64,000 nucleotides of DNA from Candidatus Limnocylindrales bacterium (GCA_046707905.1 JBKKDM010000126.1:2405-66404); one strand, 5' to 3'. Positions 7,443 through 45,045 are shown, numbered from the stretch's first letter. Translations and numbers: made by a program. Notes: generated by a model from the letters alone, not told the origin.

Positions 7443-8680
7443 TCCGGACGCGCCCAGCGAGATCAGGACTCGGGGCGCGGGCAGCCGCCGTCGTCCCACG
7501 CGACCTGCTGCTCCTGCTGGTCGCGGCGGCCCTGGTTCGCCTGGCCGGCCTCATCGGACCGGGTCATGGCGGGGACCTCCAGGCGTTCCTCGACTGGGCG
7601 GAGGGGACCGCCGAGCACGGCCTGACCGGCTACTACGCGAGCGGCGGAACCTCCAACTACCCGCCGATGCTGTACCTGCTGTGGCCGCTTGGCGTGGCCC
7701 TCGACGGCGCCGAGCTTGTCTTCGCGATCCGGTCGCTCTCGATCCCGTTCGACCTCGGGCTCGGGGCCCTGCTCTTCCATGTCGCCCGGTCGATCGGCGG
7801 CGGGGGTCGCGACGGGCTGCTCGCGGCCGGGTTCTACCTCCTGAACCCCGCGGTCGTCCTCGTCGGCCCGATGTGGGGCCAGGTCGACGGCATGGGAGCG
7901 CTGCCGATGGTCGGCTCCATCGTCGCCCTGGCCCGCGGCCGCGTCGCCCTGGGGGGCGTGCTGGCGGGCCTGGCCCGGCTCGTGAAGCCCCAGTTCGGGA
8001 TCGCCGCGTTCGTGCTGCTGGCCGTCGGCCTGGCCTGGCTGCCGTCGCGGGACGGGATCCGCCGGGTGGCGATCCTGGGGCTGGCCTCAGCCGCGACCTT
8101 CCTGGCCGTCCTCCTCCCACTGAGCCTTACTCCGTCGGCGTACCTGGACCTGATGGGCGACACGTTCAGCCAGTACCCGTACATCTCGCAGTTCGGGTTC
8201 AACCCGTGGGGCATGCTCTTCGGGTTCACCGACGACGATGCGGCGTGGTTCCGGATCGGGACCGCGCTCGCCGTCGCGGGCATCGCCGGAAGCCTGTGGC
8301 TGCTGCGATACCGGCGGGACCTCCTCGGGCTGCTCGCGGTCAGCGCGCTGCTCGGCCTCGTCATTTACTACCTGCCAACACGTGTCCACGAGCGCTACCT
8401 CTACGGCGCGGTCGCGTTCCTCGCGCCGCTGGCGGCAGTCGACCGCCGGCTGCGCTGGCCCTTCTACCAGCTCAGCGCCGTGTTCTTCGTGACCCTCGCC
8501 TACGTGCTGGCGAACTCGCCGTACCGGATCCTGCCCGGCGACAGAATCGAAGCGTTCCCCGATTGGGCGATCAGCCTCCTCTCGCTCGCGATGACCCTCG
8601 CCGGGGCGTGGGTCGCCTGGCGCGTGATCGGGCTGTTCCGGGCGCCGCCGCTTGATCGCGCGCACCCACCCGCCACCTGA
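7439..8680 (+). CDS. Polytopic membrane protein, GT-C-fold glycosyl/mannosyltransferase-like (DUF2029/PMT-like)
   Basis: 413 aa with about 10 or more hydrophobic helices. The N-terminal loop motif GYYASGGTSNYPPMLYLLWPLG resembles GT-C/DUF2029 transferases. The function call is tentative. Confidence 0.55.
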   Translation: MIRTRPARSGLGARAAAVVPRDLLLLLVAAALVRLAGLIGPGHGGDLQAFLDWAEGTAEHGLTGYYASGGTSNYPPMLYLLWPLGVALDGAELVFAIRSLSIPFDLGLGALLFHVARSIGGGGRDGLLAAGFYLLNPAVVLVGPMWGQVDGMGALPMVGSIVALARGRVALGGVLAGLARLVKPQFGIAAFVLLAVGLAWLPSRDGIRRVAILGLASAATFLAVLLPLSLTPSAYLDLMGDTFSQYPYISQFGFNPWGMLFGFTDDDAAWFRIGTALAVAGIAGSLWLLRYRRDLLGLLAVSALLGLVIYYLPTRVHERYLYGAVAFLAPLAAVDRRLRWPFYQLSAVFFVTLAYVLANSPYRILPGDRIEAFPDWAISLLSLAMTLAGAWVAWRVIGLFRAPPLDRAHPPAT

Positions 8681-9857: not shown

Positions 9858-10166
9858 TCAGGCGCCCGCTCGCGGCGCAACCACGAGGTGTGTCGCGCCA
9901 CTGAGGTCGATGCGCACCCCGGTCGGCGTCTCGACGATCCGTAGGACCACATCCGCGCACGCCGGGCATCGGACCACCACGCCCGGCCCGCGCATGTAGA
10001 CCCGGAGCGTCCCGATGACGCTGACCGTGCCGCAATGGACACAGCGCTCCTCGAGCATCGTCACGTCGCGCTCGAAGACGGTCATCAGCAGCCCGGCGAT
10101 CGCGTTGGCGTCGACGGTCAACTCGACGGCGGGGTCGTCGCGCATCAGGGCGATTCGCTCTTCCAT
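9858..10166 (-). CDS. DUF6510-family small protein (Cys4 zinc-ribbon-like)
   Basis: 102 aa with CVHCG...CPAC. It lies last in the operon with the Mo enzyme and ferredoxin reductase, which is the usual context for this family. Confidence 0.65.
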   Translation of the reverse strand: MEERIALMRDDPAVELTVDANAIAGLLMTVFERDVTMLEERCVHCGTVSVIGTLRVYMRGPGVVVRCPACADVVLRIVETPTGVRIDLSGATHLVVAPRAGA

Positions 10167-10198
10167 CGGTCGGTCCTCGCTTCCGTGCCGGCTCGCGC

Positions 10199-10957
10199 CT
10201 AGGTGCCCGTTGGGCCGAATCGCTCGGTTCGAATGCGATCTGACGGCAGCCCGAGCCTGACGAGGCCATTCGCGACCGTCTCGACCAGCGCCGTCGGGCC
10301 GCAGGCGTAGGCGCGAGGCATCGCGTTCAGCGGCTCGACCACCTCGGCCAGCATCGCCTCGTCGATCCGGCGCGCAAAGCCGTTCCAGCCTGGGGGCTGC
10401 TGCCGCGTCAGGGTATGGACGACCTCGAATCCATCGCCGGCCGCCGCCAGCCGGTCGAGCGCCTCGCGGTAGATGATCTCGTCCGGTCCGCGCGAGCTGA
10501 ACAGCAGCCGCGTCGGGACCGACATCCCGGCCCGCGAGCGGTGCCGCGCCATGGCCATCAACGGCACCACCCCGGAGCCGCCTGCGACGAGCATCAGCGG
10601 CCCACCGAGGGACGCCTCCCAGACGAAGTAGCCGCCGATCGGGCCGCGGACCTCGAGGCGGTCGCCCGCCACGACGGCCTCGTGCAGGAACGGGGAGACC
10701 TCGCCGCCCGGGATGCGCTCGACCGTGATATCCACCTCGCCGGTCCGTTCCGGCTCGGAGGCAATGGAGTACGACCGCTCGACGCTGTAGCCGTCCTCGG
10801 CGGTCAGTCGCAGGTCGACGTGCTGGCCGGCACGATGCCCCGCCCAGCCTGGCAACCCGAGCGTGAACGTCCGAACCGACGGCGTCTCATCGCGGACTGC
10901 CGCGACCATCGCCAGCTGCCAGCGGATCGACGGCGCCGCGGTGGCCTGCTCAGTCAC
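10199..10957 (-). CDS. Ferredoxin-NADP reductase-type FAD/NAD(P)-binding oxidoreductase
   Basis: It has the FAD-binding motif RSYSIAS and the NAD-binding motif LVAGGSGVVPLMAM. GTG 10957 overlaps the upstream stop by 8 nt (GTGACTGA). The ORF extension up to 11053 overlaps the upstream gene. Confidence 0.85.
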   Translation of the reverse strand: MTEQATAAPSIRWQLAMVAAVRDETPSVRTFTLGLPGWAGHRAGQHVDLRLTAEDGYSVERSYSIASEPERTGEVDITVERIPGGEVSPFLHEAVVAGDRLEVRGPIGGYFVWEASLGGPLMLVAGGSGVVPLMAMARHRSRAGMSVPTRLLFSSRGPDEIIYREALDRLAAAGDGFEVVHTLTRQQPPGWNGFARRIDEAMLAEVVEPLNAMPRAYACGPTALVETVANGLVRLGLPSDRIRTERFGPTGT

Positions 10958-11597
10958 CGCCGTACCGCTCCTCGAGCCATTGGTCGCCGCGGCTGTGATA
11001 GCCGAGCGACTCCCAGAAGCCCGGCTCGTCGCGATCCTGGACGCGCAGTCCACGGATCCATTTGGCGCTCTTCCAGAAGTAGCGCGTCGGCACGACCAGC
11101 CGCGCCGGGCCGCCGTGCTCCGGCGCGAGCGGCTTGCCGTCGTATTCGTAGGCCACGAAGGCCTGGTTGTTCAGCACGTCGCCGAGCGGCAGGTTCGTCG
11201 TGTAGCCGCCATCGCACGTCGCGATCACGAAGGCGGCCCGCTGGACCAGCTCCACGCCCTCCAGCAGCGTGTCGACGCTCACCCCCGTCCAGCGCATGTC
11301 GAGATGGGTCCACTTCGTCACGCAGCTGATGTCGACGACGTACTCACGGCTCGGGAGCGCGAGGAACTCCTCCCACGACCACTCCACGGGTCGATCGACC
11401 AGGCCCTCGAGGCGCAGCGACCAGCGATCGAGCGCCGTTCGCGGGGTCGGGCCGGCGGACAGGACCGGGAAGTCCGGCGTGAGGTACTGCCCGGGCGGCG
11501 TTCGGCGACGGCGCTCGTCCCCGGAGATGCCCGCCGTCTCCGGCGCGTCGTCGCGACGACCGACGAAGCCCCGAGTGATGAAGCGCTCCTCGCCCAT
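10950..11597 (-). CDS. Sulfite-oxidase-like molybdopterin oxidoreductase (YedY/MsrP-like catalytic domain)
   Basis: The translation FPVLSAGPTP...WSWEEFLALP...DISCVTKWTHLDMRWTGVS...FVAYEYDGKPLAPEHGGPARLVVPTRYFWKSAKWIRGL is characteristic of the Oxidored_molyb domain. ATG 11597 (MGEERF) is preferred over the ORF-track start 11675. Confidence 0.85.
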   Translation of the reverse strand: MGEERFITRGFVGRRDDAPETAGISGDERRRRTPPGQYLTPDFPVLSAGPTPRTALDRWSLRLEGLVDRPVEWSWEEFLALPSREYVVDISCVTKWTHLDMRWTGVSVDTLLEGVELVQRAAFVIATCDGGYTTNLPLGDVLNNQAFVAYEYDGKPLAPEHGGPARLVVPTRYFWKSAKWIRGLRVQDRDEPGFWESLGYHSRGDQWLEERYGGD

Positions 11598-11748
11598 CTC
11601 CACCTCCGAACCATGTGCCCGGCCGGATTGTGGCACCGCGCGAATGACCGAAATGTGACCGAAAGGGTCCCGCAACCCGAGGGGCCGTCCTGCAACCGCG
11701 AGGTCGCCGCCGCGCTGCGAGGCTGGACGCGAACCAGGAGGTCACCCC

Positions 11749-12006
11749 ATGACGACCATGACCGAGAAGGACCGCGACAAGCTCCGTTCGAACCAGTTCG
11801 CGTACGTCGACAAGGACGGCGGCGAGCATCTGCCGATCCACGACGAATCCCACATCCGGAACGCCATGGCGCGTTGGAACCAGACCGAGTTCCAGAGCGC
11901 GACGGCCAAGGAAGAGGCTCGACGGAAGATCGTCGGTGCCGCGAAACGCCACGGCATCGAGGTCGCCGACGACTCGAACGTGGCCAAGCCGTCCCGCAAG
12001 TCGTGA
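11749..12006 (+). CDS. DUF6582-like small protein
   Basis: 85 aa. The motif FAYVDKDGGEHLPIHDESHIRNAMARWNQTEF matches the DUF6582 family as remembered. Confidence 0.6.
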   Translation: MTTMTEKDRDKLRSNQFAYVDKDGGEHLPIHDESHIRNAMARWNQTEFQSATAKEEARRKIVGAAKRHGIEVADDSNVAKPSRKS

Positions 12007-36905: not shown

Positions 36906-37796
36906 TCAGACGAGGGGTTCTGCCGGAGCCTCGAGGGAGCTGAACGCGGCGAGCCGCGAAGCCCAGTCTCCGATCATCGGCGCGGCGAAGTGGCTCCCAC
37001 TCCAGGCGGCGACGAGCGGGATGTCCATCACGCCGTCGTCGACTTCGATCGGGATCTTCCGGAGCCCGTAGCGTTCGTCGTCCGTGACAACGGCCACCCC
37101 GTGTCCGCCTGCCGCCAATGCCTGGACCACCTCCGGAAGGGCCGCCTCAGCCACCGTGTGGTATTTGAGGCCGGCTGCAGCGACGGCTTGATCGAGGACT
37201 CGCCGGGTGCCGTACTCTGAGGTCAGGAGGGCTAGTGGCTCGGCCACGAGCTCCGCCAGCCCGATCGTTTCCAGATCGGCCCAGGGGTGTGCAGGCGGAA
37301 CCTGGGCCCAGATCGTGAAGCGCCCGATCGGATACGACTCGAGTTCCCCGGGCGGCGGTCCGGCCGAGACCCCAAGATCAGCCTCTCCCGATCGAATGAC
37401 TCGAAACACCGCCAGCGGGGACGACTCGCGGATCGTGACGCGCAGCGCTTCGGGCCCGAGCGTGGCCAGAAATGGCGCGATGACGTCGGCGATCGTGGTG
37501 TGCGGGGCGACAACCGTGAGATTGACGGCTCGTACCGATCCCGAATCCTGGACGTTCGTCGCCACGGCGTCGGCCCGCGCCACGAGATCGCGCGCGAGCG
37601 GAACGAGGCGACGCCCGGCGGAGGACAAACCGATCCGGCCCGCGCGGCGCTCAAAGAGGTCAACGCCGAGGAGCGCCTCGAGCTGGCGAAGCTGCCTCGA
37701 GAGCGACGGCTGTGCGATGCGGACCGAGGCGGCGGCACGCGTGATCGATCCCTGGTCCACGACCGCCAAGAAGTACCGCAGCACGCGGAGCTCCAT
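36906..37796 (-). CDS. LysR-family transcriptional regulator
   Basis: Starts at ATG 37796 (MELRVLRYFLAVVDQGSITRAAASVRIAQPSLSRQLRQLE), giving an HTH plus a substrate-binding domain. Divergent from the ABC importer operon. Confidence 0.9.
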   Translation of the reverse strand: MELRVLRYFLAVVDQGSITRAAASVRIAQPSLSRQLRQLEALLGVDLFERRAGRIGLSSAGRRLVPLARDLVARADAVATNVQDSGSVRAVNLTVVAPHTTIADVIAPFLATLGPEALRVTIRESSPLAVFRVIRSGEADLGVSAGPPPGELESYPIGRFTIWAQVPPAHPWADLETIGLAELVAEPLALLTSEYGTRRVLDQAVAAAGLKYHTVAEAALPEVVQALAAGGHGVAVVTDDERYGLRKIPIEVDDGVMDIPLVAAWSGSHFAAPMIGDWASRLAAFSSLEAPAEPLV

Positions 37797-37948
37797 CGGC
37801 CCCTCACAAAAGTGCCATGCCTCAGGGGCATGACCTGCCCACCCGCAAAGTATTGGACGGGCCGCAATCGATGGCAAACACTGGCCGCGGGAGGCGTCCG
37901 CATCGGTAGCCGGCGATTGTCGGCCCGCGGCCCTCGGAGGAGCTGCTC

Positions 37949-39616
37949 GTGATGCACCGAAATCGAGGAGCCCGCTACGTCGCGGCTCGCTGGCCGGCCA
38001 TCGTCGCCGCGACCACCCTTTTGCTTGCGGCCTGCTCAGCCGCACCGTCAGCCGCGCCCGCCTCGGGTGGCCCAGGCTCCACCGCTGGGAACACGGCCGC
38101 TGCCACGACGACGCCCACCCAATCAGGGCCTTCGGTCCTGAAGGTCGCGGCAACCGCGAGCGTCACCACCTGGGATCCGGTGAAGTCGTTCTCGACCGAG
38201 GCCCTGTACATGGCCAACATCTACGAGCCGCTCCTGTGGATCAACCGGCCCGGCTCCACCGAGGCCTATACCCCTGGGCTCGCGACCACGTGGGAGAGCT
38301 CCGCGGACGCGCTGACATGGACGTTCCACCTTCGCTCCGGCGCGACGTTCCACGATGGCACGCCGGTGGACGCTTCGGCGGTCGTGAAGTCGATCGACGC
38401 CGCGAAGGACCATGGTGGTGCGTCGTTCATCTGGGCGGCGCTGGACAAGGCCACTGCGACCGATGCGTCGACGGTGACGTTGACCCTCAAGTACGCGGCT
38501 CCGATGGACCTCGTGGCATCTTCGCTGTATGGCGCCTGGATCGTCAGCCCGAAGGCCCTCGATGCGGTTGCGGCCGACGAAACGTATTTCGAGAGCGGCG
38601 TGGACGGCGGCTCCGGCCCCTACACCATCGAGTCCTACACGGCCGACAAGGAAGTCCTCCTCACCCGCTACGACGGCTACTGGGGTGGCTGGGACGACAC
38701 CAACCACTACGACAAGGTGCTGATCTCGATCACGCCCGAAGCGGCGGTTCAGCAGCAGATGCTCGAAGGCGGCCAGGTGGACCTCGCGCTGTCACTGCCG
38801 CTGGAGAACATCGGGCAATACGCGACCAACCCGGATTACACGTACGTCGAGGAGCCGTCCTTCTTCAACTACCTGGGCTACTTCAACACCGCCAAGGCGC
38901 CGCTCGACGACGTCCTCGTCCGGCAGGCACTGTCATATGCGATCCCCTATGAGGACATCATCGCCGTTGGTGCCCAGGGCTTCGGGACACAGTCGTACGG
39001 CCCCGTACCGGCCGGTGTCTTTCCGTGGTCCGACCAGGTGCCCCAGTACAAGCAGAACATCGAGACCGCCAAGGACCTCCTCCGGCAGGCCGGCCACGAG
39101 GGTGGCGGCTTCTCGATCGAGCTCACGTACGCCTCGGAGAATCAGAACGAGGCGCGCTTCGTGCCGCTCATCAAGGAAGCCTTTGCCGAGGTTGGCGTCG
39201 ACGTGACGATCACCCCGATGCTCTTCAACCAGCAGTGGGAGCGGGCGAAGGGCGACGCGGCCGGCAGGCAGGACATGTTCATCGTCCTGTACTGGCCGAC
39301 GTACAGCGATGCCGGCTCCGACAACCTGTGGTCGCTCTTCCATAGCAGCGACGAACCGTTCTTCAACCTCAGCTATTGGAAGGACTCGCAATACGACACG
39401 CTCGTTGACGACGCCGGGGCCCTCACGGCGACCGATCGCGCCGCGGCTCAAGCGAAGTACGTGGACGCGATGAAGCGGCTGGTAGACCAGGCGCCTGGTG
39501 TGTTCCTCTATGACACCAAGTTCGTGACGGTCGTTCCGAAGCGTGTCGCGGGCTTCGCGTACAACCTCAACTACCCGTTCGCGCAGTTCTTCTACCCGAT
39601 GCATCCGGCGCAGTAG
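37949..39616 (+). CDS. ABC transporter substrate-binding lipoprotein, family 5 (peptide/nickel, DppA/OppA-like)
   Basis: Lipobox LLLAAC. 555 aa with typical SBP_bac_5 blocks (YEPLLW..., FHDGTP..., GPY...). Confidence 0.9.
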   Translation: MMHRNRGARYVAARWPAIVAATTLLLAACSAAPSAAPASGGPGSTAGNTAAATTTPTQSGPSVLKVAATASVTTWDPVKSFSTEALYMANIYEPLLWINRPGSTEAYTPGLATTWESSADALTWTFHLRSGATFHDGTPVDASAVVKSIDAAKDHGGASFIWAALDKATATDASTVTLTLKYAAPMDLVASSLYGAWIVSPKALDAVAADETYFESGVDGGSGPYTIESYTADKEVLLTRYDGYWGGWDDTNHYDKVLISITPEAAVQQQMLEGGQVDLALSLPLENIGQYATNPDYTYVEEPSFFNYLGYFNTAKAPLDDVLVRQALSYAIPYEDIIAVGAQGFGTQSYGPVPAGVFPWSDQVPQYKQNIETAKDLLRQAGHEGGGFSIELTYASENQNEARFVPLIKEAFAEVGVDVTITPMLFNQQWERAKGDAAGRQDMFIVLYWPTYSDAGSDNLWSLFHSSDEPFFNLSYWKDSQYDTLVDDAGALTATDRAAAQAKYVDAMKRLVDQAPGVFLYDTKFVTVVPKRVAGFAYNLNYPFAQFFYPMHPAQ

Positions 39617-39690: not shown

Positions 39691-40710
39691 GTGCCGAGGT
39701 TCCTGCTCCGCCGCCTCGCGGGTTCCGCGCTGGTCCTGCTCGGCGTTTCGGTGATCACCTTCGCTCTCGCGCGCGTGATCCCATCGAACGCCGCAGCGAT
39801 GTACATCGGGCCCAGGGCACGGCCCGAGGACATCGCCCGCGTCACGAGCCAGCTGGGGCTCGACCAGCCGCTCCCCGTGCAGTACCTGACCTACCTCCGG
39901 GACATGCTGACAGGCGACTGGGGGACATCGATCGGGACAAAGCGACCCGTCCTCCAGGAGATCGGCGATCGCCTGCCCGCGACGCTCGAGCTGATCGCGG
40001 CGGCGCTGCTGCTGGCGCTGGTCGCCGGGGTCCTGCTGGGCGTGCTCTCCGCGCGATGGCGCCGGGGCCTGCCAGAGGCGCTCGTCCGCGTCGGGTCGAT
40101 CGTCGGCGTCTCCATGCCGGCCTTCTGGCTCGGCCTGCTCCTCCAGATCGTGTTCTTCAGGACGCTCCACATCCTCCCGCTCGCCGGCCGGACAGACAGT
40201 GATCTGCGCTTCACGAATCCGATCGAGCCAGTCACGGGTTTCGCGCTCGTCGACGCGGCGTTGGGTGGGAACCTCGTCGGGCTGGGTGATGCGCTCGCAC
40301 ACCTCGTGCTTCCGGCCTTGACCCTCGCCGCCTATCCGCTGGGGCTCATCGCGCGCATGACGCGAGCGGCGATGCTCGAGGCGCTGCGGGAGGACTACGT
40401 CCGCACCGCGCGCGCCTACGGCCTGAGCGAGCGGCTCATCACGTACCGCCTCGCGCTCCGCAACGCGCTGCTGCCGGTGACCACGATCGCGGGGCTGTCG
40501 CTTGCATACGCCCTCACCGGGGCGTTCTTCGTCGAGCTCATCTTCAACTGGCCGGGGCTCGGAACCTTCGTGGTGCACGCGCTCCTGAACGTCGACTACC
40601 CGGCGATCATGGGGGTCACGCTGTTCGGTGCGATCGGCTATGTACTGATCAACCTGCTGGTGGATGCCGTGCAGGCCTGGCTCGACCCGCGGGTCAAGCT
40701 GGCCGGCTGA
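39691..40710 (+). CDS. ABC transporter permease (DppB/OppB-like)
   Basis: N-terminus MPRFLLRRL, BPD_transp_1 EAA-loop region (REDYVRTARAYGLSE), 6 TM segments. Confidence 0.9.
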   Translation: MPRFLLRRLAGSALVLLGVSVITFALARVIPSNAAAMYIGPRARPEDIARVTSQLGLDQPLPVQYLTYLRDMLTGDWGTSIGTKRPVLQEIGDRLPATLELIAAALLLALVAGVLLGVLSARWRRGLPEALVRVGSIVGVSMPAFWLGLLLQIVFFRTLHILPLAGRTDSDLRFTNPIEPVTGFALVDAALGGNLVGLGDALAHLVLPALTLAAYPLGLIARMTRAAMLEALREDYVRTARAYGLSERLITYRLALRNALLPVTTIAGLSLAYALTGAFFVELIFNWPGLGTFVVHALLNVDYPAIMGVTLFGAIGYVLINLLVDAVQAWLDPRVKLAG

Positions 40711-41603
40711 TGGTAAACGCGGTCGCCCCAGAGACGATGGTTCCTGCGATGCCGGTCGCGGCCGGCCCGACCCGATGGCGGTTGGCCCGGCGCGATCCGC
40801 TCGGCGCTGCCGGCCTCGCGATCATCGCACTGCTCGTCGTGCTGGCAGTCGCTGGTCCCTTCCTCGCGCCCTATCCCGAGCAGGGGGCGGGCGCCAGCGA
40901 TGTCGCCAACCGGATGCTGGGACCGAGCCTTGCGCACCCTTTCGGGACGGATGAGCTGGGGCGCGACCTCCTCAGCCGCGTGATCATGGGGACGCGAAGC
41001 GGGCTGCTCGTGGCCGTGCTCGTGGTCGGGCTCGCCATGCTCGTCGGCGTGCCTCTCGGCGCCCTTGCTGGCTACCGGCGGGGCCGCATTGACGCGCTGA
41101 TCATGCGCATCACCGACCTGTTCCTGGCGTTCCCGCCACTCCTCCTCGCGATGGCCATCGTGGCGGCGCTCGGGCCGGGCCTGGAGAACGCCGCACTCGC
41201 GTTGGCGATCTCGTGGTGGCCGTGGTACGCCAGGCTGCAACGGGCAACAACAACATCGCTTCGGGAGCGACCCTTCATCGAAGCGGCCCGCGCCGCGGGG
41301 ATGAGCGATACCAGGGTCATCGTCCGGCACATCCTTCCGAACTCGATGGGTCCCATCCTCGTGCAGGCGACGACCGACATCGGCACCGTGATCCTGGCCG
41401 CTGGCGGGCTCGCGTTTCTCGGGCTTGGAGCCACCCCGCCGGACCCGGATTGGGGGCTCATGGTCGCGCAGGGCCGCGCCTTCATCCTCGACCAGTGGTG
41501 GTTGTCGACATTTCCCGGCCTCGCGATCTTCGTCTCGGTCCTCGCGTTCAACCTGGTTGGCGATGCCCTCCTCGACCTTGTCTCCCCGAGGCGCTCGCCA
41601 TGA
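40710..41603 (+). CDS. ABC transporter permease (DppC/OppC-like)
   Basis: The start overlaps the upstream stop. The EAA-loop block is FIEAARAAGMSDTRVIVRHILPN. Confidence 0.9.
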   Translation: MVNAVAPETMVPAMPVAAGPTRWRLARRDPLGAAGLAIIALLVVLAVAGPFLAPYPEQGAGASDVANRMLGPSLAHPFGTDELGRDLLSRVIMGTRSGLLVAVLVVGLAMLVGVPLGALAGYRRGRIDALIMRITDLFLAFPPLLLAMAIVAALGPGLENAALALAISWWPWYARLQRATTTSLRERPFIEAARAAGMSDTRVIVRHILPNSMGPILVQATTDIGTVILAAGGLAFLGLGATPPDPDWGLMVAQGRAFILDQWWLSTFPGLAIFVSVLAFNLVGDALLDLVSPRRSP

Positions 41604-42664
41604 CGGGGGCAAGCCCTGCGCAGGGGGCCGTCACGCCGCTTGACGCGGCAGCCGTGCTCGACGCGGCGACCGTGCTCGACGTTCGCCGCCTTGGCGTGTC
41701 CTTCGCCACTCGGGATGGACCGCTCCAGGCAGTCGACGACGTGACGTTCCAGGTGCGCCCGGGAGAGATCGTCGGCCTCGTCGGCGAGACAGGCTGCGGC
41801 AAGACCGTCACCGGCCTTTCGATCCTGGGTCTGCTGCCGTCGAACGCGACGGCGTCCGGCTCGATCACGCTGCAGGGCCGCGAGCTCCTCGGATCCTCCG
41901 AGCGGGAGCTCCGTGCTATCCGGGGCGCCACGGTGAGCATGGTCTTTCAGAACCCGCGATCCGCGTTCAACCCGGTCTTCTCCCTCGGCTCGCAGATGCG
42001 GCACGTGCTTCGAGCACACCTTGGGCTCCGCGGCAGTGCGGCGAACGAGCGGATCGAGCAGACGCTTGCGGAAGTCGGGCTTCCGAACGCCGCGGGAATC
42101 GTTCGTTCCTATGCCCACCAGCTTTCGGGCGGGATGCTGCAGCGAGCCATGATCGCGATGGCCTTGCTATGCAAGCCGTCCCTGCTCATCGCCGACGAGC
42201 CTACTTCCGCGCTCGACGTTTCTATCGCGGCCCAGATTCTCGATCTCCTGCGATCACTGCGCGATCGGATGGGCTTGAGCGTGCTGCTGATCACCCACGA
42301 CCTCGGCGTCGTCAGGAGCTCCACGGATCGGGTGCTCGTGCTGTACGCGGGTAGGATCGCGGAGGATGGCGAGACGTCGACGGTTCTCGCCGCGCCGCGA
42401 CATCCGTATACGCGTGGCCTGCTCGCGGCAGTACCGCGGGCGACGGCGCGCCGGGGTGCGCTGAACGTCATTCCAGGGCTCGTTCCCGCGAACCCGGGGA
42501 CGATCGAAGGCTGCGCGTTCGTGGAGCGCTGCCCGCTGGCCATCGATCTATGCGTGCAGGTTCGCCCCGAGCTGCTGTCGGTGGCTCCGGGGCATGCGGC
42601 TGCGTGTCACCTCGCGCACTTGCCTGCAGGTCAGCCAACGACGGAATTGGGGCCAGTCCGATGA
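41600..42664 (+). CDS. Peptide ABC transporter ATP-binding protein (DppD/OppD-like)
   Basis: ATGA overlap with the permease stop. Walker A GETGCGKT, signature LSGGMLQRAMIA, Walker B LLIADEPTSALD, and the C-terminal oligo_HPY motif HPYTRGLL. Confidence 0.9.
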   Translation: MTGASPAQGAVTPLDAAAVLDAATVLDVRRLGVSFATRDGPLQAVDDVTFQVRPGEIVGLVGETGCGKTVTGLSILGLLPSNATASGSITLQGRELLGSSERELRAIRGATVSMVFQNPRSAFNPVFSLGSQMRHVLRAHLGLRGSAANERIEQTLAEVGLPNAAGIVRSYAHQLSGGMLQRAMIAMALLCKPSLLIADEPTSALDVSIAAQILDLLRSLRDRMGLSVLLITHDLGVVRSSTDRVLVLYAGRIAEDGETSTVLAAPRHPYTRGLLAAVPRATARRGALNVIPGLVPANPGTIEGCAFVERCPLAIDLCVQVRPELLSVAPGHAAACHLAHLPAGQPTTELGPVR

Positions 42665-44922
42665 CCGCTGTCACCGTTCCGGCGGCCGAGGCGAGCGCCC
42701 ATGGTGCCCTCCTCGAACCTGAGCCGCTGCTCCGCGTCCAGGGGCTCGTCAAGACCTTCCGGGACCCGAGCGGCCGGACCGTCCAGGCAGTCGCGGGCGT
42801 CAATCTCCAGGTCCAGGCCGGTGAGGTTCGGGCGATTGTCGGCGAGTCCGGATCGGGCAAGACGACGCTCGCTCGATGCGTTCTCCGCCTGATCGAGCCT
42901 GACGCCGGCTCGATCGAGATCGGTGGCGCCAACGTCCTCGGGATGGCTCGCGGTGCGCTGCGACGGCTTCGTCGAGATGTCCAGATCGTCTTCCAGGATC
43001 CCGCGGGATCGCTCGATCCGCGAATGCGCGTCAAGGACATCGTGCTCGAGCCGCTGCGGGTGCACGGGGACCCACTTGCCCGGGGCGCCTCCGACACGGC
43101 GCTCCAACTTCTCGACGAGGTCGGACTTTCGAGCCGGCACCTCGATCGTCGCCCGCACGAGCTCTCGGGTGGCCAGTGCCAGCGTGTGGCGATCGCGCGC
43201 GCGCTGTCGCTCAGACCGCGGTTGCTGGTGCTCGACGAGCCGACGTCGGCGCTCGACGTCTCGGTGCAGGCCCAGATCCTGAACCTGCTCGTCGAGCTGC
43301 GGGACCGTCATGGACTGACGTACGTCCTCATCTCGCACGACCTGCGCGTCGTTCGCCATCTCGCCGACTCCGTGTCGGTGATGTACCTCGGCCGGATCGT
43401 CGAGACACAGGACGCCGACACCCTGTTCGATCGGTCGGCGCACCCATATTCACGGGCGCTGCTCGCTGCGGCACCCGAGGTCGACATGACCGAGCCCCAG
43501 CCGATCCTTCTGCGCGGTGAGCCACAGAGCTCCGCCGCCGTGCCCTCGGGTTGTCGGTTCCATCCTCGCTGCTGGCTTCGCGACAAGCTCGGCGATCCCG
43601 AGATCTGCGCGCGCGTCGAGCCTCCCGCGGTCCAGCTGGGCGCGGGGTCTGCGTGCCACTTCGCCGGTGAGGTTGCGAGCCTTGCGTCGCCCGCTACAGC
43701 GCCGACATCGCCGGCCCCCGTCGAGGCGCCCGCGGTCACCCTCTCGACCTGGCAGGACCCGCCCCAGAACCGATGGTCGTACCTGCACATCGAGGAGATC
43801 TTGCCCACAGTGCCGATCTGGCGCGGTGGACTCGCCCCTTGGGGCTTCGGCGGTGCGGAGCAAGGGGATCCCACGCCGGCGACGCTGGAGACGTTGGAGT
43901 TCCAATCCCCGGAAGGCCGCGAGACGGTCCTCGAGATGCTCGACGCCACGTTCACGGACGGATTCGTCGTCGTTCACGAAGGCCGCCTCCTGCTCGAGCG
44001 GTACTCGGGCGAGATGAAGCCTGGAAGCCGGCACCTTCTGCAATCGGTTTCGAAGTCCGTCACCGCCGCGCTCGCGGGGGCGCTCGTCGGCGAGGGCCTG
44101 CTCGACCCATCCGATCTCGTCACAGACCACGTCCGTGAGCTTCGGGGATCAAGCTTTGACGGCTGCCGGGTGGAGGACCTCCTTGACATGCGCGCGGGGA
44201 CTCGCTTCTCCGAGGACTACGACGACCTCGATTCCGACATCCGGGTGTCGGAGCAGGTGTCGGGCTGGCGCCCGCGGTCGCGACGCGGGCTACCCGCCGG
44301 GCTGTATGCCTACTTCGGCACCTTGTCGAACGAGGGACCCCACGGCGGGCCGTTCGCGTACCGGTCCATCCTCACGAATGTCCTGGGATGGGTGCTCGAG
44401 CGGGCCGCCGGGCAGCCCTTCGCCGAAGCGCTCTCGACCCATGTGTGGGGTCGTCTCGGCGCCGAGTTCGACGCCTTCGTGACGGTCGACGAGCAGGGAG
44501 CCGCGGTCGAGGACGGTGGGATCGCTGTCGCCCTGCGCGATCTGGCTCGGTTCGGCCGGCTCTATCTCGATGACGGGGTCGCTGACGGCCGGCAGGTCCT
44601 GCCCGCAGACTGGGTTCGGCGACTACGCCAGCCCAATCCCGAGCTCGTGGCAGCCTTCCGTGGTCCGTTCGCGTACACGGGCATCGCGACTGCCGAGCTC
44701 CACTATCACGATCAGTGGTGGGTCCTGGATCCGCGGCGCGGAATCCACGCCGCCCTCGGGATCCACGGACAGATGGTCTACGTCCATGGTTCGAGCCGAA
44801 CCGTCGTCGTCAAGCTGTCGACGCATCCTCAGGCGCTCGATCGGCGCCTCGTGCAACGCCAACTCTCGGCGGCCCAGGCAATAGCCGGTTCGCTGGAGGG
44901 TTCGGGCGCTACGGCAGGGTAG
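42661..44922 (+). CDS. Fusion protein: peptide ABC transporter ATPase (DppF/OppF-like) joined to a beta-lactamase-fold serine hydrolase (NylB/D-aminopeptidase-like)
   Basis: A single uninterrupted 753-codon frame from ATG 42661 (ATGA overlap). The N-terminal half has GESGSGKTT, LSGGQCQRVAIA, LLVLDEPTSALD and HPYSRALL...CRFHPRC. A Pro/Ala linker (ASPATAPTSPAPVEAPA) follows, then a roughly 400-aa domain with the SxxK motif (QSVSKSV) and a GIHGQ motif. Confidence 0.85.
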   Translation: MTAVTVPAAEASAHGALLEPEPLLRVQGLVKTFRDPSGRTVQAVAGVNLQVQAGEVRAIVGESGSGKTTLARCVLRLIEPDAGSIEIGGANVLGMARGALRRLRRDVQIVFQDPAGSLDPRMRVKDIVLEPLRVHGDPLARGASDTALQLLDEVGLSSRHLDRRPHELSGGQCQRVAIARALSLRPRLLVLDEPTSALDVSVQAQILNLLVELRDRHGLTYVLISHDLRVVRHLADSVSVMYLGRIVETQDADTLFDRSAHPYSRALLAAAPEVDMTEPQPILLRGEPQSSAAVPSGCRFHPRCWLRDKLGDPEICARVEPPAVQLGAGSACHFAGEVASLASPATAPTSPAPVEAPAVTLSTWQDPPQNRWSYLHIEEILPTVPIWRGGLAPWGFGGAEQGDPTPATLETLEFQSPEGRETVLEMLDATFTDGFVVVHEGRLLLERYSGEMKPGSRHLLQSVSKSVTAALAGALVGEGLLDPSDLVTDHVRELRGSSFDGCRVEDLLDMRAGTRFSEDYDDLDSDIRVSEQVSGWRPRSRRGLPAGLYAYFGTLSNEGPHGGPFAYRSILTNVLGWVLERAAGQPFAEALSTHVWGRLGAEFDAFVTVDEQGAAVEDGGIAVALRDLARFGRLYLDDGVADGRQVLPADWVRRLRQPNPELVAAFRGPFAYTGIATAELHYHDQWWVLDPRRGIHAALGIHGQMVYVHGSSRTVVVKLSTHPQALDRRLVQRQLSAAQAIAGSLEGSGATAG

Positions 44923-44989
44923 CGGTCAAGTGACCAGGCGACCATCCATGCACGGTTCGCGGTGGACGGGTCGCTGCAGAACAACGCCA

Positions 44990-45045
44990 GGGGAGTTGGC
45001 TGGCGAGGAAGGATTCGAACCTTCAACCGCCTGATCCAGAGTCAG
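44990..45045 (-). repeat. tRNA-Gln(CUG) 3'-half fragment, copy A (att-like direct repeat)
   Basis: Minus strand reads CTGA-CTCTGGA-TCAGG CGGTT GAAGG-TTCGAAT-CCTTC CTCGCCA G CCA plus 7 nt. There is no D arm or 5' acceptor strand upstream. It is 54/56 identical to copy B. Confidence 0.7.

Follow-up and report, generated by a model that had tools for sequence, protein, structure and literature searches.

A 64,000-nucleotide stretch of DNA from a Candidatus Limnocylindrales bacterium (GCA_046707905.1, JBKKDM010000126.1:2405-66404; here called the window) contains, at 42661-44922 on the plus strand, a gene in which the ATPase of a Dpp/Opp-type peptide importer is joined to a serine hydrolase of the NylB family. 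The gene is a single open reading frame of 753 codons, with a stop-free translation to 753 amino acids, and its ATG overlaps the stop codon of the preceding dppD-type gene in an ATGA at 42661-42664. The motifs on which the original prediction was based (HPYSRALL, CRFHPRC, SVSKS and GIHGQ) are all found in the fusion protein. That prediction of one continuous 753-codon frame is borne out: stops and frameshifts are absent, the junction is reproduced by a second assembler, and 32 full-length homologues (55-66% identity) are organized alike.

Only one public run, a soil DNA metagenome, holds the window sequence. A 10.5-kb contig produced by a different assembler (Logan) matches the window throughout 42600-45000, without a single difference or gap, at approximately 15x depth; it comes from the same soil sample as the window and hence is only partly independent. 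The linker between the two halves contains 0 in-frame ATG, GTG or TTG codons in the window, so the hydrolase has no separate start there. The summed depth of Logan contigs rises from approximately 15 to 38-70 at 43167-43328, in the Walker B/signature region; this rise reflects short contigs of other organisms' ATP-binding cassette (ABC) genes mapping to the site and therefore carries no copy-number signal.

Residues 1-335 (42661-43665, plus strand) constitute a nucleotide-binding domain (NBD) of the DppF/OppF type with its oligo_HPY extension, as indicated by Pfam, NCBIfam, PDB and Foldseek matches. Pfam assigns ABC_tran to residues 46-196 (E 7e-33) and oligo_HPY (PF08352) to residues 247-307 (E 4e-14); with Beta-lactamase PF00144 in the second half, all three domains expected of the fusion are called. 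The nearest NCBIfam model for the first ~335 residues is PRK11308 (dipeptide ATP-binding; E 4e-92), and scores are under the cutoffs for this model (308.9 versus 408), for OppF (276 versus 540) and for DppF (256 versus 660). As judged from its sequence, the NBD is a member of the Dpp/Opp (PepT) family and not an orthologue of the Escherichia coli proteins. Walker A (GESGSGKT, residues 61-68), the Q-loop (Q112), the LSGGQ signature (168-172), Walker B (LLVLDEPT, 188-195) and the H-loop (H226) are invariant across 33 aligned fused proteins, as are C298, C304, C316 and C332. The nearest PDB entries are Mycobacterium tuberculosis OppD (8j5q) and DppD and E. coli OppF (8z21_D) and DppF (8z1v_D), and Foldseek matches 8z1x_D (E 2e-26). 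Pfam, motifs and PDB matches therefore agree on a complete DppF/OppF NBD with the C-terminal extension of Opp/Dpp transporters, as had been proposed. In E. coli DppF, Cys293, Cys299, Cys306 and Cys323 of the tail ligate a [4Fe-4S] cluster, and Cys-to-Ser mutations disassemble the complex (PMC12136057). Because the four invariant cysteines resemble these ligands, the tail of the fusion NBD probably holds a [4Fe-4S] cluster as well.

The NBD is followed by an Ala/Pro/Ser/Thr-rich linker (approximately residues 336-359; 43666-43737, plus strand). Across homologues it is approximately 10-60 amino acids long and Ala/Pro/Gly-rich, and both its length and its sequence vary freely. The AlphaFold2 model of the fusion with the junction seen in the window (class 1) is confident for the NBD (residues 20-270) and for the hydrolase (residues 365-748, mostly >90), and the putative Fe-S region and the linker are unstructured. 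The linker has a predicted local distance difference test (pLDDT) score of <50, and the Pro/Ala-rich connection described originally is thus a flexible stretch of unconstrained sequence.

The remainder of the protein (residues ~360-753; 43738-44922, plus strand, including the stop codon) is a serine amidase/esterase domain of the NylB family, as identified by phmmer, Foldseek and Pfam. PF00144 covers residues 435-733 (E 1e-32), and a phmmer search of the PDB aligns NylB residues 22-369 of the 6-aminohexanoate-dimer hydrolase 2zm0 (E 1.7e-71). NylB structures are also the top Foldseek matches for this domain (3vwp, E 2e-27; target-normalised template-modelling [TM] score, 0.79; ~36% identity). 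Similarity to NylB is full length, and the N-terminal WQ(D/E)PP segment, the Tyr170 loop and the GIHGQ third motif are all present. Site alignment places NylB S112 at the nucleophile Ser462 (codon 44044-44046, plus strand), K115 at Lys465 within the SxxK motif S462-V-S-K465, Y170 at Tyr520, R187 at Arg537, Y215 at Tyr567 (the general base equivalent), S217 at Ser569 in the second motif (Y-R-S) and G344-I-H-G-Q348 at G700-I-H-G-Q704, the third motif, which is the oxyanion motif. NylB D181 and N266 correspond to Glu531 and Asp618. All of these mapped residues, including the Ser/Lys/Tyr triad, Glu531, Asp618 and GIHGQ, are invariant in the 33 fused proteins. The C-terminal hydrolase domain of ~400 amino acids that had been recognized from its SxxK and GIHGQ motifs can thus be assigned specifically to the NylB branch, with its catalytic triad intact on alignment.

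Asp181 and Asn266 are the substitutions that confer high 6-aminohexanoate-dimer activity on NylB, and structural work by Negoro and Ohki reportedly shows that positions 181 and 266 surround the amino group of the substrate. This nylon-adapted pair is absent from the fusions, which have Glu531 and Asp618 in 33/33 proteins, and the presence of two acidic residues at these positions suggests a substrate with a free ammonium end. More distant relatives of the domain include a structural-genomics homologue from Bacillus anthracis (4gb7) and PIB-1 of Pseudomonas aeruginosa (8rlj; E 1.7e-33). Other assignments within the fold were considered and rejected. A class C (AmpC) beta-lactamase is not indicated, as the Y-x-N/K-T-G motifs are replaced by Y-R-S/H-G-Q and AmpC matches have E values of 1e-5 or weaker; nor is a secreted AmpC-type enzyme, as the domain has no signal peptide and is joined to a cytoplasmic NBD. 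No member of the DAP/D-amino-acid amidase group is among the 54 PDB matches with E <= 0.01, the top 18 of which are all deposited as 6-aminohexanoate-dimer hydrolase.

A homologue search of 5.8 billion clustered proteins (clusters from NCBI, ENA, JGI and Logan assemblies) retrieved approximately 35 clusters of 715-775 amino acids and 55-66% identity with the same ABC_tran, oligo_HPY and PF00144 architecture. Both halves are conserved in the alignment of 33 fused proteins (mean column identity, 65%). The hydrolase-domain alignment was also scanned against one genome per species (GTDB set), giving 254 relatives, and the best 80 of these were analysed. Among these 80, cassette-bearing loci are all in Chloroflexota metagenome-assembled genomes (MAGs), and at least 11 distinct Chloroflexota contigs carry the fused gene. 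Gene order (a divergent LysR gene, a family-5 substrate-binding protein [SBP], DppB, DppC, DppD and DppF::NylB) is constant in the class 1 fusions found. Three homologues that were looked up have an identical six-gene cassette, with an SBP of 555 amino acids and mutually unrelated flanking genes, and no further catabolic gene is conserved beside the cassette at these three loci. The flanks of related cassettes are entirely different, and the cassette may move as a unit. The closest relative, Chloroflexota MAG L004, shares 67-69% identity in the hydrolase domain, 86% in the SBP and 81% in DppB. A Chloroflexia MAG (L010) has a fused gene with a frameshift in the N-terminal part of the hydrolase domain (~7900-8200), which may be an indel error or mark a pseudogene.

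Although conserved, the fusion is rare. When the hydrolase domain was used to search 1.84 billion representatives exhaustively with HMMER, 715 clusters were retrieved at E <= 1e-30, and an ABC domain is present in only two of the best 150, P0023 (class 1) and P0215 (a second class, described below). All fusion carriers found are uncultured. Database names, where given, are only "oligopeptide/dipeptide ABC transporter ATP-binding protein," and full-text literature searches for NBD-hydrolase or NylB-transporter fusions found no paper describing one, in agreement with the earlier suggestion that this architecture is undescribed for Dpp/Opp systems. The searches also returned proteins of other composition. 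P0081 (1039 amino acids) combines OppC_N/BPD_transp_1 with ABC_tran and oligo_HPY and is a permease-ATPase fusion of the same importer family. P0252 joins a NylB-like domain to a C-terminal META domain, and P0229 (740 amino acids), P0201 (609 amino acids) and P0218 (635 amino acids) are NylB-like proteins with long N-terminal extensions lacking a Pfam match; an ABC domain is absent from all four. Several solo NylB-like genes are preceded by long open frames, which were rejected as extra domains and represent GC-rich read-through.

A second class of fusion comprises P0093, P0098, P0119 and P0215 (approximately 641-648 amino acids), which contain ABC_tran and PF00144 and no oligo_HPY. In P0098 the NBD ends after HPFTKQLLHA, and the NylB-like domain (...FDLGEWQDGP) starts approximately ten residues further on. 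By its domain content, class 2 is a form in which the hydrolase stands in place of the predicted Fe-S tail with almost no linker. The class 2 locus L085 (fusion at 10001-11929) has the same LysR/SBP/DppB/DppC/DppD gene order, and its DppD retains the oligo_HPY tail. The host belongs to an Actinomycetota lineage with 52% GC, whose GlyRS is 80-90% identical to others, with all named matches being actinomycete. Class 2 hydrolase domains form their own clade (Shimodaira-Hasegawa-like approximate likelihood ratio test [SH-aLRT] support, 100), with many unfused lineages between it and class 1. The separate clade and the different junction indicate an independent second fusion.

The two halves are also found as separate genes. 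In four cassettes of the same composition (L008, L017, L019 and L034), the NBD ends in ...ALAE(E/D)(P)R(P)* and the hydrolase (MSVDA...LVTL.NWQDPP) starts in another frame through an overlapping ATGA, at approximately 7890-8010 of each locus. This split state is considered real because the four MAGs stem from several independent projects. In Actinomycetota L013 and L026, dppF ends in ...ACLFT* and is directly followed by a separate NylB-like gene. In relatives the hydrolase is therefore also found as a gene of its own after dppF, a possibility raised with the original prediction, and the window gene represents a classic fusion of neighbouring, translationally coupled genes. Approximately 14 of 62 stand-alone loci have a match to a Dpp-type ATPase within 8 kb, and five of these also have permease or SBP matches. 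In a plasmid of Rhizobium leguminosarum (L084; CP007070, 131292-138883), genes for an SBP, two permeases, one double-NBD ATPase and a hypothetical protein are followed by an annotated 6-aminohexanoate-dimer hydrolase. The nylB plasmid pOAD2 carries oppA-F (Kato et al. 1995, as cited in PMC11644497). The ATPase-adjacent loci, the Rhizobium operon and oppA-F of pOAD2 indicate that the association of the NylB family with peptide importers is general and that the fusion is its extreme case.

In a maximum-likelihood tree of hydrolase domains, fused and split cassette genes form one Chloroflexota clade (SH-aLRT, 99). Actinomycetota L013, L026 and L023 are among the nearest outside lineages, in unresolved branching order, and 58 stand-alone genes are more distant. 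Most simply, the tree is explained by fusion of a hydrolase gene to the neighbouring dppF at the base of the Chloroflexota clade, followed by at least one later split.

The fusion gene is preceded by the remaining components of the importer. A family-5 (DppA-like) substrate-binding lipoprotein of 555 amino acids (37949-39616, plus strand; Pfam SBP_bac_5, E 3e-77) has a lipobox-like ...LLLAAC signal at its N terminus and is closest to the solved structures 5u4o and E. coli DppA 1dpp (E 1e-38 to 1e-42). It is followed by a DppB-type permease of 339 amino acids (39691-40710, plus strand; BPD_transp_1_N and BPD_transp_1) and a DppC-type permease of 297 amino acids (40710-41603, plus strand; OppC_N and BPD_transp_1). 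The unfused partner NBD is a DppD-type ATPase of 354 amino acids (41600-42664, plus strand; ABC_tran and oligo_HPY), the tail of which has its own four-Cys motif (C-x5-C-x6-C...C) with oligo_HPY. The DppB stop abuts the DppC start, and the DppC stop overlaps the DppD start in an ATGA at 41600-41603. A consensus scan for sigma-70 promoters and terminators found nothing exceeding shuffled sequences.

A LysR-type regulator of 296 amino acids (36906-37796, minus strand; HTH_1, E 9e-20; LysR_substrate, E 1e-21) is divergent from the importer operon and occupies the same position, with 60-63% identity, in related cassettes. Approximately 20 nt upstream of the lysR start lies a candidate LysR box, the T-N11-A dyad TGCCTCAGGGGCA (TGCC-N5-GGCA) at 37818-37830. 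The dyad is kept in nine of 13 related cassettes, approximately 20-30 nt upstream of lysR (intergenic regions of L001, L006-L008, L012, L015, L017, L019 and L034), and plausibly constitutes the LysR recognition site. The family-5 importer operon with a LysR-type regulator that had been predicted upstream of the fusion is thus present, with each of its components (divergent LysR, SBP, two permeases and DppD) identified by Pfam, and the arrangement is consistent with control of the operon by LysR.

An intact ATPase and an intact hydrolase active site are therefore found on one polypeptide, within a conserved cassette that exists in fused, split and adjacent states and has undergone fusion twice independently. 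These features are probably best interpreted as a bifunctional subunit of a Dpp-type importer, in which the ATPase is accompanied by a tethered amidase that hydrolyses an imported small amide or peptide. The DppF half would pair with the separately encoded DppD as the heterodimeric motor on DppBC, the DppA-like lipoprotein would deliver a small amide or peptide-like compound, and the flexible tether of 10-60 residues would keep the cytoplasmic NylB-family amidase beside the motor. The cargo, likely a small amide or peptide-like molecule with a free, positively charged amino terminus, would be cleaved on arrival by the tethered enzyme, probably from its amino-terminal end as in NylB. Ser462 would serve as the nucleophile and Lys465/Tyr567 as general base/acid, with the oxyanion hole formed by the backbone of Ile701. 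The absence of any other conserved catabolic gene beside the cassette suggests that the products are ordinary metabolites, which would enter general metabolism. The divergent LysR would induce the operon. Such a gene probably originated from an operon in which the hydrolase gene lay directly after, and overlapped, dppF, and fusion would ensure that each transporter has one hydrolase where the cargo enters. It is plausible, as originally proposed, that hydrolysis is sited at the exit of the translocation pathway. The class of substrate and any kinetic coupling of import to hydrolysis are inferred, as are the Fe-S cluster and the control by LysR.

Several observations weigh against a specialized bifunctional subunit. 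The active-site residues are the same as those of 62 unfused close relatives, only about one-quarter of which are near a Dpp-type ATPase, suggesting that the hydrolase is not specialized for the tethered state. AlphaFold2 folds the individual domains well in both fusion classes and gives no defined NBD-hydrolase interface in either (predicted TM scores, 0.57 for class 1 and 0.59 for class 2), and with the disordered linker this leaves direct channelling unsupported. Split genes are nested among fused ones in the hydrolase tree, indicating that covalent linkage is dispensable and that the fusion may be near-neutral. The hydrolase is present on one of the two NBDs only, NylB itself is reported as a dimer, and the sole source of the sequence is a soil DNA metagenome. 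Ligand contacts of the SBP are not reliably mapped at its divergence from E. coli DppA, the ligand contacts Arg355 and Asp408 of which align with Ala and with a position of one-residue ambiguity, respectively.

Some of these observations are expected if the gene is a neutral "Rosetta-stone" fusion, in which loss of the stop codon in an ATGA-overlapped dppF-nylB pair left a tether with no kinetic or regulatory gain and a free enzyme would serve equally well. A one-base change at the junction interconverts the split and fused states, and the nested split forms, the unconstrained linker, the missing interface and the active-site identity with unfused relatives all fit such an origin. However, the fused state persists in a clade down to approximately 55% identity, a second fusion arose independently in another phylum with a different junction, and in class 2 a structurally important tail is replaced. 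Repeated fusion suggests that physical proximity is useful; neutrality is regarded as possible but unlikely.

A more ambitious version of the bifunctional subunit is a cut-on-arrival importer, in which the NylB-like site takes the substrate directly as it exits the DppBC pathway or, when occupied, exerts feedback on the DppD/DppF ATPase. Class 2 fits this proposal best, as its hydrolase stands, almost without a linker, in the place of the structurally essential Fe-S tail. Import and hydrolysis would in that case be one coupled step, resembling group translocation, and the cassette would also show on which class of natural, pre-nylon substrates the NylB family acts. Coupling of this kind is rather doubtful.

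The hydrolase could alternatively be a regulatory appendage, acting mainly as a cytoplasmic ligand sensor that trans-inhibits the ATPase in the manner of the C-terminal domains of MalK and MetN, with hydrolysis a secondary or reset function. The domain sits exactly where importer NBDs bear regulatory domains, and class 2 exchanges the Fe-S tail, which in E. coli is needed for integrity of the complex (PMC12136057), for a hydrolase with almost no linker. Nevertheless, invariance of all catalytic residues would be unexpected in a pure binding module, the long disordered linker of class 1 speaks against a rigid allosteric connection and natural split forms exist, and a mainly regulatory role is improbable. 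Self-protection, in which a toxic peptide-like or beta-lactam-like import would be inactivated on entry by the tethered enzyme, is less credible still. The relationship to carbapenem-hydrolysing PIB-1 (8rlj, E 1.7e-33; 10.1101/2024.03.05.583521) and the role of peptide ABC importers as known entry routes for natural antibiotics (PMC12136057) would favour it. Against this, beta-lactam targets lie outside the cytoplasm, where a cytoplasmic enzyme gives no protection, and the domain has YRS and HGQ in place of the class C motifs YxN and KTG. Loss of a toxin importer would also be simpler, and NylB is by far the closer match (E 1e-71 versus 1e-33), making detoxification very improbable. An artefact, in which a sequencing or assembly frameshift merged two genes in this MAG, might be suspected because in close cassettes a difference in frame alone separates the two-gene arrangement from the fused one and the window is a metagenome assembly of ~15x depth, but it is effectively excluded by the identical junction from another assembler, the stop-free frame with its start-free linker and, as stronger evidence than the contig, conservation of the fusion with different linkers in the nearest relative (L004) and >30 further clusters from several independent projects.

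The bifunctional subunit favoured here combines two well-known families in an importer ATPase that bears an enzyme, and does not represent a new kind of system. Regulatory tails are known from ABC importer ATPases, and literature searches found no description of one with a catalytic enzyme for its own cargo. The fused, split, adjacent and stand-alone forms, with those of the second junction, provide a natural comparison for determining the kinetic, regulatory or stoichiometric value of proximity, and the Rhizobium operon, which belongs to a cultured bacterium and has the corresponding genes unfused, is a possible experimental model. NylB is famous as a recently evolved hydrolase of nylon oligomers, and the nylonase papers examined contain nothing on natural substrates of NylB. 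In the cassette, a member of this family is associated with its own Dpp-type binding protein and LysR regulator, both of which are handles for finding the natural substrates of NylB relatives. Even a neutral fusion would be a useful annotation correction for proteins named only as ABC ATP-binding proteins.

Among characterized enzymes, the hydrolase domain is most similar to NylB (EII) from plasmid pOAD2 of Arthrobacter (Flavobacterium) sp. strain KI72 (1wyb, 2zm0 and 2dcf), with which it shares the fold, Ser112/Lys115/Tyr215, Tyr170, Arg187, Ser217 and GIHGQ; both are cytoplasmic and lack a signal peptide. NylB is a free-standing protein of 392 amino acids, whereas the fusion domain is covalently attached to an ABC ATPase. 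The two also differ at positions 181/266, which are Asp/Asn in NylB and Glu/Asp in the fusion proteins. PIB-1 (PA5542, 8rlj) belongs to the same NylB-like subgroup of class C-related serine hydrolases (Foldseek target-normalised TM score, 0.84-0.88) but is a stand-alone protein, reported to be a metal-dependent carbapenemase (10.1101/2024.03.05.583521), with only ~26% identity.

The importer shares its operon logic of a family-5 SBP, two permeases and two NBDs with DppBCDF/OppBCDF of E. coli and OppABCD/DppABCD of M. tuberculosis (8z1v-8z21, 8j5q and 8wd9). An oligo_HPY extension and a four-Cys motif are common to E. coli DppF and the fusion NBD, although the Cys spacing differs (C-x5-C-x11-C-x15-C versus C-x5-C-x6-C-x16-C), and none of the solved E. 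coli or M. tuberculosis importers has an enzyme domain on an NBD. Pairing of importer and hydrolase has precedents in which the enzyme is a separate protein. In Rhizobium CP007070 a peptide ABC importer is co-transcribed with a NylB-family hydrolase. The dppA-E importer operon of Bacillus subtilis likewise includes the D-aminopeptidase DppA, which has an unrelated (M55) fold. Extra cytoplasmic domains covalently attached to ABC transporters, acting on or sensing the substrate, are found in peptidase-containing ABC transporters (PCATs), MalK and MetN. PCATs are exporters with a C39 peptidase that is joined to the membrane half-transporter and works ahead of transport, and MalK and MetN have non-catalytic regulatory C-terminal domains on importer NBDs. 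The fusion described here differs from these in that the NBD of an importer bears a putative catalytic hydrolase, the action of which would follow transport.

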